Positions 34,417 to 55,447 are shown, counted from the stretch's first letter. The stretch is DNA of 64,000 bases from Nitrosopumilus sp. (GCA_965224195.1 OZ245040.1:832001-896000); one strand, 5' to 3'. The notes: a model not told the origin generated them from the letters alone. Translations and numbers: made by a program.

Positions 34417-35508
34417 CTATTCTACGTTAACAGTTCCTACCATACATGGGTGGAATGTGCAGAAATAATCAAAAATTCCTGCATCTGTAAATGTAAATTC
34501 GAAAATATCTCCTGCTGACATCATTTCTGAATCAAAGGTACCATCTGTTTCTGGTACTTTTCCTGATGTTACTGTGTGTACTGTAGTATCTGCATTATCC
34601 CATGCAACTGTAGTTCCAACAGTAATGTCTATTGTTTCTGGATCATAGTAAATTTGTCCGTCTTCAATAATTGCTGCTCCTTGTGGAATTGTTACTTTGG
34701 TTGGTTCTTTTGCAGCTTCAATAACTAAAGTTGCAACCATCCAGGGATGAACGATGCACAAGTATTCGTGTTCGCCCACTTCCAAACCATTTGAGTCTAA
34801 TGAGTAAGATTCTCCTGGACCAAACAATCCTGAATCAAATGTTTCCCCAAAGCCTACTGTACTTGTAACTGTATGTGCGGCAGCATCTGCATTTGTCCAT
34901 TCAATTACATGACCTTGTGTAACAACTGCGACATCTGGCGAATAGTCTGGATTTCCTTCTGTTGCAGAATCTTTTAGAATTTCAATTGCAAATATTGGTC
35001 CTGATGGTGTAAGATCTTCTGCTGGTTCATCAACACCTACTTGTTGAGGAATCATGTATGTGTCAGGAGATGAGAACATTCCAAATGATACACACATGAT
35101 AATTCCTGTAGCTGCTGCCATTGAAACAATTGCCCCGATTGGCTTTGCTACTTCTGGATGTTTCATGTATAGATATGAAATTATAATTGCAGGAAATGCA
35201 ATTGCCATTAAAATTCCGGCTAATGTAATTGTATAATTTGATGTATTCATAACCATTGCATACATTCCAAATCCTAATGATATTGATAAAATCACCAAAG
35301 TCGTAGCTTTGGCTCTATTACTTGTTGAAACCCCTCCATCCAAGATACCTGCTGCAAGGAAAATTAATCCAACAAACATGGTCAAGCCTGTAAGTGCATG
35401 CATGCCATCGATGAATGTATGTGCAATACCTGCATACGACAATGTAAGACCAGCTAATCCTATAGCTGTTAGTCCCATTCCTGGCATCATGAGGTCCCAA
35501 TTACTCAT
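34417..35508 (-). CDS. Multi-TM protein with two C-terminal cupredoxin domains
   Basis: About 5 TM helices; HTVTS...CIVHPWM and HTVTSG...CTFHPCM. Confidence 0.88.
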   Translation of the reverse strand: MSNWDLMMPGMGLTAIGLAGLTLSYAGIAHTFIDGMHALTGLTMFVGLIFLAAGILDGGVSTSNRAKATTLVILSISLGFGMYAMVMNTSNYTITLAGILMAIAFPAIIISYLYMKHPEVAKPIGAIVSMAAATGIIMCVSFGMFSSPDTYMIPQQVGVDEPAEDLTPSGPIFAIEILKDSATEGNPDYSPDVAVVTQGHVIEWTNADAAAHTVTSTVGFGETFDSGLFGPGESYSLDSNGLEVGEHEYLCIVHPWMVATLVIEAAKEPTKVTIPQGAAIIEDGQIYYDPETIDITVGTTVAWDNADTTVHTVTSGKVPETDGTFDSEMMSAGDIFEFTFTDAGIFDYFCTFHPCMVGTVNVE

Positions 35509-50555: not shown

Positions 50556-50674
50556 AGACTTTGTTTATAATGGTTGGAATTAAACTATACTGATTTTTTT
50601 AAAATCTGCTTACTGATGATTTCTACGTAAGTGTTTTAATAGAAATTTGCTAATCTTTGATATCGCATGCTAAC

Positions 50675-50783
50675 TGTATTCATACATCTGCGATAGTACA
50701 ACCAGTCTAACCTGTAAATGGTGCTTGTATCGTTCCTAGTTTTGGATGTATTCATACATCTGCGATAGTACAACCAGTCTAAC
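50675..50783. CRISPR. Orphan CRISPR-like unit: 37-bp repeat, 35-bp spacer, 37-bp repeat
   Basis: tgtattcatacatctgcgatagtacaaccagtctaac at 50675 and 50747 (identical); spacer ctgtaaatggtgcttgtatcgttcctagttttgga; no cas genes in window. The repeat is certain; CRISPR function is not. Confidence 0.4.
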
Positions 50784-50792
50784 AGGAGTCAT

Positions 50793-50818
50793 AAGGAGTG
50801 TCCAATTGGGCACTCTTT
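50793..50818 (+). terminator. 11-bp hairpin downstream of the repeat unit
   Basis: aaggagtgtcc-aatt-gggcactcttt; the two G.U pairs work only on + strand. Confidence 0.5.
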
Positions 50819-50827
50819 CATTATAAT

Positions 50828-51160
50828 CTAGTCTGTCTTTTCAGGCACGATTTTTGCGTCTTGCATGGCTTCATCTTTTGGAGGATTTATGATTGCCTTT
50901 TTGATTAATGCTGCTTTGTCTTTTATTATCTGATTAAATTCTTTCATGTCCTCTAAACTTGGTGTTTGTTGTTGATTTTGATATGCTTGTAAAAATCCAG
51001 AATATACACATCCTGTAATGATTCCAAATGCTGTATCTGGAATTGATTTTATCTCGGGAATAAAATTTTCTGCTATTTGTTTATATGATTCTGATTCGCT
51101 AATGTAATAATCAATCAAACTATCTATGAAATCTTTGTTTTCTTTAGAAATTGCCATCAT
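50828..51160 (-). CDS. Conserved thaumarchaeal hypothetical protein
   Basis: DTAFGIITGCVYS motif, helical. Confidence 0.7.
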   Translation of the reverse strand: MMAISKENKDFIDSLIDYYISESESYKQIAENFIPEIKSIPDTAFGIITGCVYSGFLQAYQNQQQTPSLEDMKEFNQIIKDKAALIKKAIINPPKDEAMQDAKIVPEKTD

Positions 51161-51232
51161 TATTGTCTTTATTTCCTAGTTTATTTAATTGTCTTTGATT
51201 AATCGTTTATTTATTCATCAACTCTTTGCAAG

Positions 51233-51691
51233 ATGTTGTGGAAATTAGAATCAGATGAGGGGTATTTTCGAATCTATGATTCCAAAAAACTCATTGCAGG
51301 ATATTTTGATCCTGATTATGGGGATATTTTACCCAAAGAAAATTCTGAAGAAATCATTTTTTCCATGTTGAAAAATCATGATAAAATTTTAGGTGGAATA
51401 CTTATGGTTCCTCTTGTTAAATTTAGATTATTTGACACTGATTTGAATACTTCATTGACAAATGTAGAATCTCAAGTAAATCGTGTTAATGACCATTTAC
51501 AAAAATGGAAATTATTTATATCTAAAATGAAATATGATTGGCATTCTGTAAGAATTTCTCATACTGACCAAGACATGCTTACTATATCATTCCAAATGAA
51601 ATTTTCAAAACCTACGCCTCTTGAAAATAAAGCATTACTTGAAGAACTCTTCAATACATTGGAAAATTTACAAAAATCTGAATTACTTTAG
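51233..51691 (+). CDS. Hypothetical protein
   Basis: 152-aa ORF (AGYFDPDYG, SHTDQDML). Confidence 0.7.
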   Translation: MLWKLESDEGYFRIYDSKKLIAGYFDPDYGDILPKENSEEIIFSMLKNHDKILGGILMVPLVKFRLFDTDLNTSLTNVESQVNRVNDHLQKWKLFISKMKYDWHSVRISHTDQDMLTISFQMKFSKPTPLENKALLEELFNTLENLQKSELL

Positions 51692-51704
51692 TATATAAAA
51701 AAAT

Positions 51705-52394
51705 CTAAGGTAAATGTTCTTTTTTCCATTTTTCAGCCTCGTTAAAGCAGTTAAACCACTCTACTTCAATCTCATCTGAATCAAATTCATTTATTTCGTT
51801 TTTAAATTCTGAATCACATTTATTTTTCATATTTTCTGAAATTTGAATTACTTTTTGTTTGAGTACTTTATCTGGGGGTGAAAATTTACCTGTTTCATCA
51901 AATTCTATTATCCCTGCTTTTGCTAATTGAAATTCAATCAATCCTAAATTTTCATACTCATATGCTTCTTGAATTTGAGTATCTGATCTCACTTTGGCTA
52001 ATTCATCTCCAGTTCTAATCCATTTGATATACTCTACATCACTTTTTAATTGAGTTTCAGATGAAATCTTGAATAATTCTACTGAACTTTCAAACAACTC
52101 TGGGGTGACCAAGTTTTCATATTTAGAAATAATATTTTCAAATTTTTCTACATGTTCATCGTAGTATTCTAGCAGTTCTTCTTTTGTAATGTCCCCTTCA
52201 TTCCATTGTGTCTTTTCAGAATAAAATTTTGTTTGTAATTCTGCTACGTCTTGTTGAATTTGAGCAAGCTCATTTCCAAACTGAAACCCTTTCTGCTTGG
52301 CTTGCTCTGATGAATAGTTATATGCAATAATTGCAATGATGATAATAACTCCTATTGTCGCAATGGTGATATTTTGAATTTTATTTTTTTTCAA
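51705..52394 (-). CDS. Membrane-anchored helical protein
   Basis: N-terminal TM followed by coiled-coil. Confidence 0.7.
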   Translation of the reverse strand: MKKNKIQNITIATIGVIIIIAIIAYNYSSEQAKQKGFQFGNELAQIQQDVAELQTKFYSEKTQWNEGDITKEELLEYYDEHVEKFENIISKYENLVTPELFESSVELFKISSETQLKSDVEYIKWIRTGDELAKVRSDTQIQEAYEYENLGLIEFQLAKAGIIEFDETGKFSPPDKVLKQKVIQISENMKNKCDSEFKNEINEFDSDEIEVEWFNCFNEAEKWKKEHLP

Positions 52395-52681
52395 AGATAA
52401 TCTATATAATTTCCTTCTTCGTCTAACTTTAATTCAATTGTAAATTCAGTACCGCTGATAAAAGAGTTATTTCGTGTAGTTCTGACCCGTCCAATGACCA
52501 ACTCATATGGCCAAATCTCTACTACGATTGCACCCACTTTAGCTGTTGGCGTCTCTGTAATCTCCATGTCTTCACGCTTTACTCCGTGTCTTTCGAGCAT
52601 GTGTATGGCGTGGTCTAATAATGGCTCTGGATTATTGTAATTTAATACCCAAACCTTTCCTTCATAATCAATTTTTTGCAA
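52391..52681 (-). CDS. Hypothetical protein
   Basis: 96-aa ORF overlapping next gene by 4 bp. Confidence 0.65.
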   Translation of the reverse strand: MQKIDYEGKVWVLNYNNPEPLLDHAIHMLERHGVKREDMEITETPTAKVGAIVVEIWPYELVIGRVRTTRNNSFISGTEFTIELKLDEEGNYIDYL

Positions 52682-52714
52682 TTTGAAACAATCCTAAATT
52701 TACTCATATAACAA

Positions 52715-52948
52715 TTATTCGGGAACTATGACATTTAGGGTCATTGTACTAGCAACTCTGGATAATTTTCTAATAGTTGCAATTACTTTTTCAAATTCAT
52801 CCTGATTACTAGTTTGAATTTCAGCAATCACATCATATGCACCAAACGTAAGATATGCATTTCCAATATCCTGCATTTGTTTTAATTCATCTACGATATA
52901 TTCTTCTGCTCCTAAGTCACAATTTAATAAAATGAATCCTTTGTGCAT
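52715..52948 (-). CDS. Stand-alone Lrp/AsnC ligand-binding (RAM) domain
   Basis: FILLNCDLG, FGAYDVIA, IRKL...STMTL. Confidence 0.85.
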   Translation of the reverse strand: MHKGFILLNCDLGAEEYIVDELKQMQDIGNAYLTFGAYDVIAEIQTSNQDEFEKVIATIRKLSRVASTMTLNVIVPE

Positions 52949-52998
52949 TGGTTTATCTTAAATTAATTACGTAGTTCAAGTCTTTAAGTTTTACAGTG

Positions 52999-54318
52999 TT
53001 ACCATCTACTACGTCCGCCGTAGCTATTTCTGTTTCCATCTCTACCGCTGCTTCTTCTTCTACCGCTTCTGTCATCTCTTGGGTTTCCTCCCCCTCTAGA
53101 ACCTCCGTATCCTCCAGAACGACCTCCTCTAGAATAATTGGATCTGGATTGTCCTCCGTATCTTCTTGATGGAGTTTGTCTTTTTAGTGGGTCTGGAATT
53201 GAGATTTGAATTCCCATTTCTTTATTTAAATCTGTAATTGGAACTTTGATTTGGCGTTTGACTAGATTCCAATCTCCTACTGATGAATATGACACAAATG
53301 TGATTGCTCTTCCTTTTGCACCAGCTCTTGCAGTTCTTCCAATTCTATGAAAATATGCCATCTCTTGATTTGGTACATCATAATTTACTACTAGTTCTAC
53401 TCTAGGAACATCAATTCCTCTTGATGCTACGTCTGTTGCAACAAGAATATCTGCTTTACCACTTCTAAATTTGCCCATAGATTGTTCTCTTCTATGCTGT
53501 GACATGTCTCCTTCGATAGCTACTGCGTTGTATTTTTCTTGATGGAGGAATTTTGCAACGTCTCTGGTTCTATATTTTGTTGAACAGAATACGATAATTT
53601 GTCCTTTAATTGGTTTAACAAAATCAATTAGATACTTGAATTTGTCCCGGTCTTTAATTACCAAATATGATTGGTCTATTCCTTCTCCACTAAGATCATC
53701 TGCATCTAGTAAGAATTGTTTTGGATTGTTTAGATATTCTTCTGATAATCTTAAAATCTCAGTTGGCATTGTTGCTGAAAATAATGACATTACTCTATCT
53801 TCAGGAGCTAAATCTAAAATGAATGAAATATCATCTACAAATCCCATATCTAACATGGTATCTGCTTCATCAAGAACGATATGAGAAATATCTCTTAGTT
53901 CAATTGATCCTCTTTTGAGATGGTCAATTAGTCTACCTGGAGTAGCAACAACAATTTCTACACCTCTGTGTAGGGCATCTAATTGAATTCCCATTCCTTG
54001 TCCGCCGTAAACAGTTGCAGTTCTAATTCCTGTATGCTTTCCGAATTTTTTGATTTCATCGCTGATTTGCATAGCTAATTCTCTTGTTGGCGCCATGATC
54101 AAACCCTGAATTCCTTGTTTTGGTTGAATTTTCTCTAACATTGATAATGCAAATGCTGCAGTTTTCCCAGAACCTGTATGTGCTTGTCCTACGACATCTC
54201 TACCTGATAGTAAAACTGGAATCACTGCTTCTTGAATTGGAAATGCTTCTTCGTAACCTTGATCTGTAATTCCTTTCAGCACATCGTCGCTTAATCCTAA
54301 ATCTTGAAATTTTGTCAT
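52999..54318 (-). CDS. DEAD-box RNA helicase
   Basis: Q motif, AHTGSGKT, PTRELA, DEAD, SAT, HRIGRTAR, RGG tail; ATG 54318 preferred to GTG 54363. Confidence 0.95.
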   Translation of the reverse strand: MTKFQDLGLSDDVLKGITDQGYEEAFPIQEAVIPVLLSGRDVVGQAHTGSGKTAAFALSMLEKIQPKQGIQGLIMAPTRELAMQISDEIKKFGKHTGIRTATVYGGQGMGIQLDALHRGVEIVVATPGRLIDHLKRGSIELRDISHIVLDEADTMLDMGFVDDISFILDLAPEDRVMSLFSATMPTEILRLSEEYLNNPKQFLLDADDLSGEGIDQSYLVIKDRDKFKYLIDFVKPIKGQIIVFCSTKYRTRDVAKFLHQEKYNAVAIEGDMSQHRREQSMGKFRSGKADILVATDVASRGIDVPRVELVVNYDVPNQEMAYFHRIGRTARAGAKGRAITFVSYSSVGDWNLVKRQIKVPITDLNKEMGIQISIPDPLKRQTPSRRYGGQSRSNYSRGGRSGGYGGSRGGGNPRDDRSGRRRSSGRDGNRNSYGGRSRW

Positions 54319-54419
54319 TTTGTTTTTCTCTCTTTGGCAATGACGAAAAAGCTCATTGCCCACTCGTCATTATTCTGATGCTTGATGTCGATCGTGGTCT
54401 AATAAACGCTTGTTATTTT

Positions 54420-55298
54420 TTATGAGTTTAGTTGAGCATCAATTACTTTTTTGAAACTCTCAAATGGTTGGGCTCCTTTTAATTCAACAAATCCAATTTG
54501 ATCATTTCCTACAAAGAATCCTGGTGTTCCTGAAATTCCATAATTTCTTCCATCATTAAGATCATTTTGAATTTCTGGAATGTGTTTTCCACTATTGAGA
54601 CATAAATCAAATAATTCTTGATCTAATTGCATGTCTGATGCATATTGACTGAATAATGATAATGCATCACTAATTTCTAGTCTATTCCAATTATTTTGAT
54701 TTTCAAATAATGCATCATGCATTTCTCTAAACTTATTTTGATCATTTGCACATTCAGCTGCAACTGATGCTGGTAATGCATTTGGATGAATACTTTGAAT
54801 TGGGAAATCTCTAAAAACTAATTTCACTTTACCTTGTTCGATATATTCCTCTAATAGTGATGGTAATGTTTGAGTGTGGAATCTTGCACAAAATGGACAC
54901 TGAAAGTCTGAAAATTCTACAATGGTGATTGGGGCATCAGGATTTCCTATGATGGGATCATTGTCCATTGAAATTTTTACTGGTTCTGCTGCTTGTTTAG
55001 TAGGTAATTGGTTTTGTAATAATTTTAACTGATCAAAAGGAATGAAACCTTCGCCACTATCAGAATGTTTAGTAGGTAATTGGTTTTGTAATAATTTTAA
55101 CTCTAGTTTTGCTATTGCCTCATCAAGATCTACTGTTGAAATCTGGTTTGAATTTAGATTTGATGTGTATGATCCTGCAAAAAATGCTGTAATCCCGACT
55201 AGAATTATTATTCCTATGACCAATCCATTAAAAGTAGATTTTTTTACAGAAATCTTTTCATTATTATTTTGATTTATTTCTGAATCATCTAAACTCAT
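54420..55298 (-). CDS. DsbA-family thiol-disulfide oxidoreductase carrying a 24-aa duplication-insertion
   Basis: TM anchor, EFSDFQCPFC, GTPGF; ATG 55298 preferred because the track start (55379) overlaps the tRNA. Confidence 0.9.
   Translation of the reverse strand: MSLDDSEINQNNNEKISVKKSTFNGLVIGIIILVGITAFFAGSYTSNLNSNQISTVDLDEAIAKLELKLLQNQLPTKHSDSGEGFIPFDQLKLLQNQLPTKQAAEPVKISMDNDPIIGNPDAPITIVEFSDFQCPFCARFHTQTLPSLLEEYIEQGKVKLVFRDFPIQSIHPNALPASVAAECANDQNKFREMHDALFENQNNWNRLEISDALSLFSQYASDMQLDQELFDLCLNSGKHIPEIQNDLNDGRNYGISGTPGFFVGNDQIGFVELKGAQPFESFKKVIDAQLNS
54994..55102. repeat. 37-bp perfect direct repeat flanking a 35-bp unique insert inside the DsbA gene
   Basis: tgtttagtaggtaattggttttgtaataattttaact at 54994 and 55066; insert gatcaaaaggaatgaaaccttcgccactatcagaa. 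Confidence 0.95.
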
Positions 55299-55373
55299 TT
55301 CTATTAAATCTAAATCTAGTATACTTAATCGTATTGCCAAATATTGGATTAAGGATGTTATAGAAAAGAAAAG

Positions 55374-55447
55374 AGCCAATGACGGGATCTGAACCCATGA
55401 CCTATTGATTACAAATCAATTGCTCTACCAGGCTGAGCTACATTGGC
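55374..55447 (-). tRNA. tRNA-Thr(UGU), intronless, CCA not encoded
   Basis: GCCAATG/CATTGGC acceptor stem, D arm AGCTCAGCCTGGTAGAGC, anticodon arm ATTGA-TTTGTAA-TCAAT, T arm GGG-TTCAGAT-CCC. Confidence 0.95.

Follow-up and report, generated by a model that had tools for sequence, protein, structure and literature searches.

The DNA considered here is a 64,000-nucleotide window from Nitrosopumilus sp. (GCA_965224195.1 OZ245040.1:832001-896000), corresponding to C1:832001-896000 of the focal genome (G000). At two places in it, site 1 (C1 882675) and site 2 (C1 886994, in a DsbA-like gene), a unique 35-bp segment is bracketed by two copies of a 37-bp sequence. The initial annotation had read this pair of 37/35/37 structures as candidate scars of ectopic spacer acquisition by a CRISPR system. 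Both structures were found, with a period of 72 bp at each site and 100% identity within each 37-bp pair. The features, in window coordinates, are:

50675..50711, no strand: site 1 R1, first of the two 37-bp target copies, intergenic, 100% identical to 50747-50783
50712..50746, no strand: site 1 insert, 35 bp, a putative captured spacer, absent from relatives and unrelated to the flanks
50747..50783, no strand: site 1 repeat copy R2, the duplicated target, 100% identical to R1
54994..55030, no strand: site 2 R1, the duplicated 37-bp (or 36-bp) target in the DsbA-like gene, identical to 55066-55102
55031..55065, no strand: site 2 insert, 35 bp (or 36 bp), a copy of C1:1253098-1253132 with 35/35 identity
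55066..55102, no strand: site 2 R2, the duplicated target, identical to R1
54420..55379, minus strand: DsbA-like thioredoxin-fold gene with an in-frame 24-amino-acid (aa) insertion, from the open reading frame (ORF) and domain matches

Site 1 lies between ORFs of at least 50 aa. Its target and the hairpin-like sequence that follows (window 50640-50830) are well conserved in two relatives, which suggests an unannotated functional element, though no Rfam family matched at the site. Site 2 lies in an ORF of 319 aa with matches to Thioredoxin_4 (PF13462, 129 bits) and DSBA (PF01323, 61 bits) over residues 139-315. Its 72 bp preserve the reading frame and lengthen the protein by 24 residues (LKLLQNQLPTK HSDSGEGFIPFDQ) N-terminal of the thioredoxin domain. 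The annotation had allowed for an error of 1 nt in the boundaries, and such an ambiguity is seen at site 2, where 36+36 is possible instead of 37+35 because the base preceding the donor match is also a T.

The inserts of the two sites do not resemble their flanks: best-shift identity was 0.34-0.38 vs. a 99.5th percentile of 0.55 for the null, which excludes degenerate flank copies, an outcome that would have spoken against the annotated origin. At neither site is the middle a copy of the adjacent flank, as slippage would leave it. Neither is a CRISPR array with three or more repeats and a leader; each consists of two copies of host sequence.

Both sites are bridged by contigs from public sequencing runs, so that the failure of reads to span the junctions, which the initial annotation had named as a danger, is not the case. 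A 95-nt unitig (50682-50776) bridges R1-insert-R2 of site 1 in runs X20 and X21, at a depth of 105 vs. 112-123 for the flanks in X20 and 349 vs. 378-450 in X21. The junctions of site 2 are bridged by the unitigs 55001-55059 and 55036-55095. In a third run, X22, the breaks fall at identical k-1 positions. No joint skipping 72 bp is listed in the runs; these are contig data, so rare empty alleles could be missed. In sediment metagenome X1, a contig of a relative carries site 1 in single copy.

Alleles with one copy and no insert, as predicted by the annotation, were found at both window sites and at four others, i.e. at 6 of the 11 sites examined, with no filled orthologue. In congeners 76-92% identical to the focal genome, BLAST alignments are split at the copies' inner edges, and the parts overlap in the subject by about one repeat length. 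For the DsbA site, alignment showed one copy and no insert at all 11 congeneric loci, the gap being exactly 72 bp in ten and 66 bp in one. Site 1 has an exact 72-bp gap in both alignable loci, and the same BLAST break was observed in four further genomes (G015, G007, G004, and G017). Site 898236 is empty in four of four relatives, with overlaps of 33-37 bp, as is site 907258, where the query gap minus the subject gap equals 71-75 bp. Site 1892823 is empty in 11 congeners (13 loci) and also in two 99%-identical paralogues of the same genome; the overlap is exactly 37 bp in most of these loci, both paralogues included. Site 1639458 lies inside a multi-copy insertion sequence (IS), other copies of which are empty. 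The remaining five sites were uninformative: 739057 is at the edge of a poorly conserved stretch, and the DNA at 1363425, 1326527, 912527, and 912673 is not alignable in relatives. The IS carrying the 1639458 scar is one of two multi-copy elements noticed; the other, an IS-like element of approximately 1.07 kb at C1:1363663-1364734, has at least 13 copies of 96-97% identity, with many copies in G017 and G015.

The focal genome comprises 2.07 Mb with a guanine-cytosine (GC) content of 33.6%, and it encodes an archaeal AmoA; the host is therefore an ammonia-oxidising archaeon. The whole genome was scanned for all perfect direct repeats at periods of 1-600 bp, and repeats were considered isolated if perfect, at least 30 bp long, with a period of 30-600 bp, outside arrays, and free of other periodicity. 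The period fell at 70-79 bp in 27 of the 41 isolated repeats, and any other 5-bp bin held at most two. A 37-mer match at a fixed short offset is unlikely to arise by chance in 2 Mb; a sharp excess at 70-79 bp was seen instead. The peak persisted at 70-76 bp in a mismatch-tolerant scan, which added 11 sites whose copies differ at one or two positions. A genome-wide peak at 72 bp had been anticipated in the initial annotation, and it was located at 72-73 bp.

The perfect-repeat scan gave 30 isolated sites with periods of 62-82 bp. Four were set aside for atypical geometry: 923061 (46-bp repeat, period 80), 1073464 (48/72, a collagen-like coding repeat), 1129510 (49/78), and 1619806 (30/75). Also left out of the count were 146508 (36/72), which lies inside a longer 120-bp repeat, and 778956, with an insert like its flank. 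The latter was the only one flagged by the flank-similarity filter; the other 40 of 41 focal-genome sites passed, their inserts being no closer to the flanks than random DNA. The final count is approximately 36 sites, 25 perfect and 11 with one or two mismatches, and every repeat and insert sequence is different. The statistics below on target models, distance to cas1, GC, and length predate the removal of 778956 and include it.

Of the 25 perfect sites, 22 have an apparent duplication of 35-39 bp and two have one of 30 bp. Inserts are 32-41 bp long (mode 35-36) and periods 66-78 bp (mode 72-73); edges fixed by a donor give 35-37 bp for the duplication and 35-38 bp for the spacer. No ectopic locus with multiple spacers was found in the focal genome, where periods of 153 and 156 bp proved to be protein repeats.

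These dimensions can be compared with the resident CRISPR arrays of the same genome:

C1:707205-713740: array A1, 90 repeats of 36 nt, spacers mostly 36-37 nt
C1:941990-946529: array A2, 69 repeats of 30 nt, spacers mostly 36-37 nt
C1:1457181-1466783: array A3, 132 repeats of 37 nt, spacers mostly 35-36 nt

Within each array the repeats are all identical, except for one degenerate terminal copy in A2. A Pfam Cas1 search detected three cas1 genes; all are accompanied by cas2 and cas4 in intact modules, every module adjoining one array. The neighbours of A1 form a complete type I-G set (Cas4g/Cas1g fusion, Cas3g, Csb2, Csb1/Cas7g, and Cas2), the fusion matching NF049935 with 714.7 bits vs. a cut-off of 560. 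The A2 module contains Cas4, Cas1b, and Cas2. At A3, I-B-like Cas7, Cas5, and Cas3 accompany Cas1, Cas2, and Cas4, the Cas7 and Cas5 matches being under the curated cut-offs. The lengths of scar duplications and inserts match those of the resident repeats (36, 37, and 30 nt) and spacers (35-37 nt), and the two perfect sites with a 30-bp duplication, at periods of 66 and 69 bp, have the geometry of A2. The annotation had seen no cas gene in the window and had proposed to look for cas1, cas2, and cas4 and to compare the resident arrays; the three modules, with 36/37-nt repeats and 35-37-nt spacers, lie elsewhere in the genome. A Cas4-like nuclease domain was also noticed at C1:703966-704655, in a 1043-aa open frame beside the 703813 scar and approximately 3 kb from A1.

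Full-length matches to distant chromosomal loci were obtained for 5 of the 30 inserts at perfect sites and for three at decayed sites. In total, 8 of 37 inserts (approximately 22%) have chromosomal donors, with 0-6 mismatches. In the five inserts that were aligned together with their flanks, the donor homology ends at the insert edges, and no edge microhomology is visible. Donors were assigned as follows:

Site 886994 (DsbA): donor C1:1253098-1253132, 35/35
Site 898236: donor C1:207965-208000, 35/36
Site 907258: donor C1:195931-195966, 34/36
Site 1892823: donor C1:234869-234905, 36/37
Site 173581: donor C1:1512390-1512426, 36/37; also 794137-794173 at 34/37

The initial annotation had suggested searching both 35-mers for a source, and this succeeded for one of them. 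The DsbA-site insert matches C1:1253098-1253132, within a 137-aa membrane ORF that has an 85-95% match in relatives G015, G004, and G007. The site 1 insert is unmatched in the rest of the genome; viral, genome, and metagenome contigs contain no exact copy of it, and 150 congeners none at up to three mismatches; a single phage BLAST match was rejected (E = 0.1). Four further non-self inserts gave no exact match in viral contigs, in a search without an array-spacer benchmark, so that these blanks say little. The donors of 173581 lie in two near-identical gene copies of approximately 230 aa (C1:794044-794733 and C1:1511830-1512528) with a weak match to a Cas4-like nuclease (26.5 bits, under the cut-off); these genes may be part of integrated elements.

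Three of the eight donors are located at C1 195-235 kb, one of them inside an Orc1/Cdc6 gene (C1:194937-196145; TIGR02928, 362 bits vs. a cut-off of 181). The captured segment of this gene is a Walker-A segment. Donor and insert differ at two positions, both synonymous, a hint that a diverged homologue served as the donor; over all inserts, three of five differences to the best source are synonymous, which is suggestive only. The 195-242 kb region may thus adjoin the replication origin and act as a hot spot for prespacers.

Among the 288 array spacers there is no full-length self match, which fits if self spacers are lethal in a working array but do no harm in a scar that is not expressed. The 29 non-self inserts have a GC content of 0.426, similar to that of array spacers (0.404-0.423, P = 0.33) and distinct from that of genomic 36-mers (0.335, P = 3e-7). 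Given this spacer-like GC, the non-self inserts apparently share their source with the genuine spacers. The small second contig, C2 (7434 bp, 31.2% GC), has no match to any array spacer or ectopic insert.

Cas1 is present in 13 of 40 congeners. As controls we used three partly scanned genomes, 0.79 Mb each, which gave one clear positive, one negative, and one ambiguous result:

G009 (0.79 of 2.19 Mb): a second species with cas modules related to those of the focal genome; two cas1, of which one lies in a 571-aa frame; related arrays with repeats of 36 and 30 nt; 14 isolated two-copy repeats with periods of 71-75
G010 (0.79 of 1.36 Mb): no cas1; no scars
G051 (0.79 of 2.39 Mb): a single cas1, in the form of the I-G fusion; a large array of 36-nt repeats; one clean candidate, two borderline, and one tandem duplication

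All 14 sites of G009 passed the flank filter, and their inserts are rich in GC (45.8% vs. 37.9%). Four inserts have self-like donors. Two of these donors, those of the inserts at 34477 and 41414, have counterparts in the 195-242 kb region of the focal genome, at 195.9 kb and 242.1 kb. The 195.9-kb donor is the same Orc1/Cdc6 segment that was captured in the focal genome, i.e. an independent capture in both species. Four sites (5187, 34477, 41414, and 186739) form a class with a 33-bp duplication, inserts of 38-40 bp, and periods of 71-73 bp. In G010 the period-72 matches were all short-period tandem repeats, and in G051 the insert at 1120329 resembles its flank, indicative of a tandem duplication.

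Two loci of G009 hold more than one spacer. At locus L050 (238779-239107), five copies of a 36-nt repeat unrelated to the main arrays separate four unique spacers of 35-37 nt, and the following ~100 bp contain another duplication of 36 bp whose register is shifted. This mini-array is possibly a naturally born 'neo-CRISPR' hot spot, a candidate ectopic site that kept acquiring. Locus L052 (278185) has three repeats and two spacers in alternation, both 38-nt spacers being identical (a 74-bp unit in tandem). Its structure resembles that of an ectopic scar expanded subsequently through unequal recombination.

Target sites carry a significant, diffuse signal. Expectation-maximisation with hidden orientation reached a log-likelihood of 179.6 vs. 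106.7 +/- 9.3 for random sets (maximum 128), and the leave-one-out target score was +1.0 bit vs. -8.8 +/- 5.8 at random positions. The clearest feature is a CT directly 5' of the duplication, present in 9 of 24 sites, where a rough estimate gives about 2-3. This dinucleotide seems to resemble the end of the A1 leader as predicted from sequence (...CTGCT, directly before the array).

For the effects on genes, the pre-insertion state was rebuilt in silico by removing one period. Several targets lie in long open frames (165-414 aa) that are broken by the insertion. The open frame across the target is:

739057: 414 aa
1363425: 324 aa
1228750: 308 aa
1490408: 284 aa
1639458: 279 aa (in the IS)
1892823: 276 aa
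173581: 195 aa
3949: 165 aa

Where the period is divisible by three the frame is read through, as at 886994 (DsbA), 798295, 898236, 1326527 (a 1035-aa frame), and 1698884. The scars lie closer to cas1 than random positions do (median 98.6 kb vs. 199.6 kb, P = 0.003). Fourteen of 37 sites fall in the 680-925 kb around A1 and A2 and none at 200-600 kb, in a count whose window was chosen post hoc.

Taken together, it is highly probable that the two window sites and the other scars are off-target (non-canonical) spacer integrations by the host's own CRISPR adaptation machinery. Natural and fixed acquisitions of this kind, as the initial annotation had proposed, are supported by the geometry, the excess at one period, the empty alleles, the donors, the GC content, and the control genomes. 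We infer Cas1-Cas2 as the catalyst from the geometry and from the correlation across three fully compared genomes, and the choice of module is likewise inferred. In such a scheme, Cas1-Cas2 loaded with a prespacer of ~35-37 bp would attack ordinary chromosomal DNA rather than the leader-proximal repeat. Two staggered strand transfers ~36-37 bp apart would follow the ruler normally set for the resident repeat, and gap repair would duplicate the target on both sides of the insert, giving a repeat-spacer-repeat unit with a period of ~72-73 bp. The likeliest module would be the type I-G Cas4/Cas1 fusion with Cas2 (36-nt repeat); the I-B-like module (37-nt repeat) may contribute, and one or two sites have the 30-nt / 66-69 geometry of the third. 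Out-of-frame insertions break genes, and in-frame ones, as in DsbA, add a peptide.

Several observations weigh against this reading. The link to Cas1-Cas2 is one of geometry and of a correlation over three fully compared genomes, a fourth, G051, being ambiguous. G051, with the I-G module only, gave few candidates in 0.79 Mb away from its cas locus, around which the scan covered 20 kb; such a yield does not establish the I-G module by itself as sufficient. The 33-bp class of G009 fits neither array seen in the scanned part. The overall identity of the targets to resident CRISPR repeats is at background, and a position weight matrix built from ectopic sites scores true repeats only ~1 standard deviation above random. 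Because of this background identity, the annotated idea of repeat-like targets with GTT...AAC termini fails: 24 sites show weak end preferences, and GT...AAC is common to the window pair and not general. A common protospacer adjacent motif (PAM) next to the matches, also envisaged there, did not emerge either, with no consistent motif, TTN included, beside the eight donors. Five non-self inserts were searched in public collections and no donor was found. Finally, X20 and X21 hold 99% of the sampled words and are possibly the assembly's own source, and so may not be independent.

Some of these points are shared by a rival explanation in which the short DNA is placed in the chromosome by an unknown ruler-type integrase, a casposase, or a solo Cas1, and the CRISPR adaptation modules play no part. 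Targets unlike CRISPR repeats, the missing PAM, and the unmatched 33-bp class of G009 all suit it, as do weaker divergent Cas1 matches in some congeners, which could be casposases; family 1 casposases have been described from a Nitrosopumilus. Casposons make target duplications of ~14-15 bp and carry kilobases of cargo. In the focal genome no solo or casposase-like cas1 was detected by the Pfam search. All three cas1 genes sit in cas1-cas2-cas4 modules adjoining arrays, and for this reason the solo or casposon Cas1 that the initial annotation had offered as an alternative fails. The scars follow the resident repeats in the length of the duplication and the resident spacers in that of the insert, one 30/66 site among them, and insert GC equals array-spacer GC. 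We regard an independent integrase as very unlikely. Templated insertion during DNA repair, e.g. microhomology-mediated template switching that copies a remote segment into a break, would explain inserts copied from remote chromosomal DNA, with three of eight donors at 195-235 kb near Orc1/Cdc6. Yet it does not predict a constant ~36-bp duplication together with a constant ~36-bp insert, nor the resident CRISPR geometry, the spacer-like GC, and the absence from the cas-less relative; no microhomology is visible at the donor edges, and we give this explanation a slighter chance still.

Tandem duplication by slippage or unequal recombination, with middle parts that later diverged, has real mimics in 778956 (focal genome) and 1120329 (G051), whose inserts are like the flank, and the focal genome contains many coding repeats of 60, 72, 120, and 153 bp. 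Against this, 40 of 41 inserts are no more flank-like than random DNA, eight were copied from far loci, and the middle would need to be saturated with changes between repeats that are still perfect. Relatives are short by exactly one period, and this, with the remote donors and the inserts unlike their flanks, refutes tandem duplication for both window sites. The judgement in the initial annotation that simple slippage is inadequate is upheld by the inserts unlike their flanks, the remote donors, and the relatives lacking one period, and as a general account it is exceedingly improbable. An assembly artefact is the most remote of all: short repeats can mis-assemble, and X20 and X21 are perhaps the source data, but R1-insert-R2 unitigs occur there at flank depth, the k-1 break positions recur in X22, a joint skipping 72 bp was not listed, and 36 sites of different sequence share one geometry.

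Off-target integration by the host's adaptation machinery, the reading we prefer, would have consequences beyond the window. There is about an even chance that CRISPR adaptation in this genus acts as a regular insertional mutagen and generator of new arrays, placing ~36-bp fragments of Orc1/Cdc6-near and foreign DNA at dozens of sites per genome, with gene knock-outs, 24-residue peptides, and occasional sites that still acquire, such as the G009 mini-array. If so, the scars would be a natural, selection-free record of Cas1-Cas2 captures, including self DNA purged from arrays, and carrying CRISPR would have a measurable fitness cost. Questions that become testable are the fidelity of archaeal Cas1-Cas2 in vivo, captures uncensored by interference (22% self-like vs. 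0/288), the mutational cost of adaptation (165-414-aa frames broken), and the birth of new arrays. For annotation, two-copy 36-bp repeats within genes of CRISPR-bearing archaea can be integrase scars and not slippage. A side observation in the window concerns positions 51495-51854, where an AT-rich motif of 24-39 nt recurs in three imperfect copies at intervals of 165-171 bp, around the point where a 152-aa ORF ends and the following gene begins.

In comparison with known systems, a casposon would be recognised by a casposase, a kilobase element, terminal inverted repeats, and a short duplication, and the present inserts of 32-41 bp do not have this make-up. What casposons would have in common with them is Cas1-family integrase chemistry with a target-site duplication, known from this archaeal group (PMC8464041, PMC5137440). 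The I-U/I-G Cas4/1-Cas2 module of Geobacter sulfurreducens is reported to acquire predominantly 36-bp spacers with a TTN PAM, and its chromosomal spacers are enriched near oriC (PMC6547450). The Cas4-Cas1 fusion and the predominant 36-bp spacer are common to that module and the focal genome, and the oriC enrichment can be set beside our three of eight donors at 195-235 kb, beginning in Orc1/Cdc6, and beside the two G009 donors from the orthologous region. At the same time, acquisition in G. sulfurreducens is on-target with a TTN PAM, and the term 'off-target' is absent from the main text (PMC6547450), whereas no TTN was seen beside the eight donors here.

The type of event is already known from experiments, mainly in engineered E. 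coli and in vitro. What stands out is its scale in a natural archaeal genome, the comparative proof, the gene disruptions, the captured self DNA, and a second species, and the approximately 36 fixed natural events add an age spectrum (25 perfect, 11 with one or two mismatches). In the literature searched we found no survey of natural genomes with such scars and nothing for ammonia-oxidising archaea. Pyrococcus furiosus Cas1-Cas2 integrates off target in vitro; this archaeal Cas1-Cas2 alone enters non-CRISPR DNA, with the spacing set by the enzyme and by repeat elements (PMC6698737). Those integrations were into plasmids at repeat-like off-target sites, in contrast to the in vivo chromosome and the diffuse target preference seen here. 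In E. coli, off-target integration by Cas1-Cas2 with possible 'neo-CRISPR' formation was reported by Nivala, Shipman and Church (2018, Nat Microbiol 3:310). According to papers that cite this work, the events were rare, occurred in cells over-producing Cas1-Cas2, and belong to type I-E; a citing preprint calls the natural evidence in two other species 'circumstantial' and the importance in nature unclear. The E. coli events, as cited, are like the scars described here in that a spacer-sized insert lies outside the array, a repeat-length target is duplicated, and new arrays can be seeded. Unlike them, the present sites are natural and fixed and number approximately 36 per genome. Their host is an ammonia-oxidising archaeon whose modules are of the I-G and I-B-like types, with a ruler of 36-37 bp; genes are disrupted, and a second species replicates the finding.

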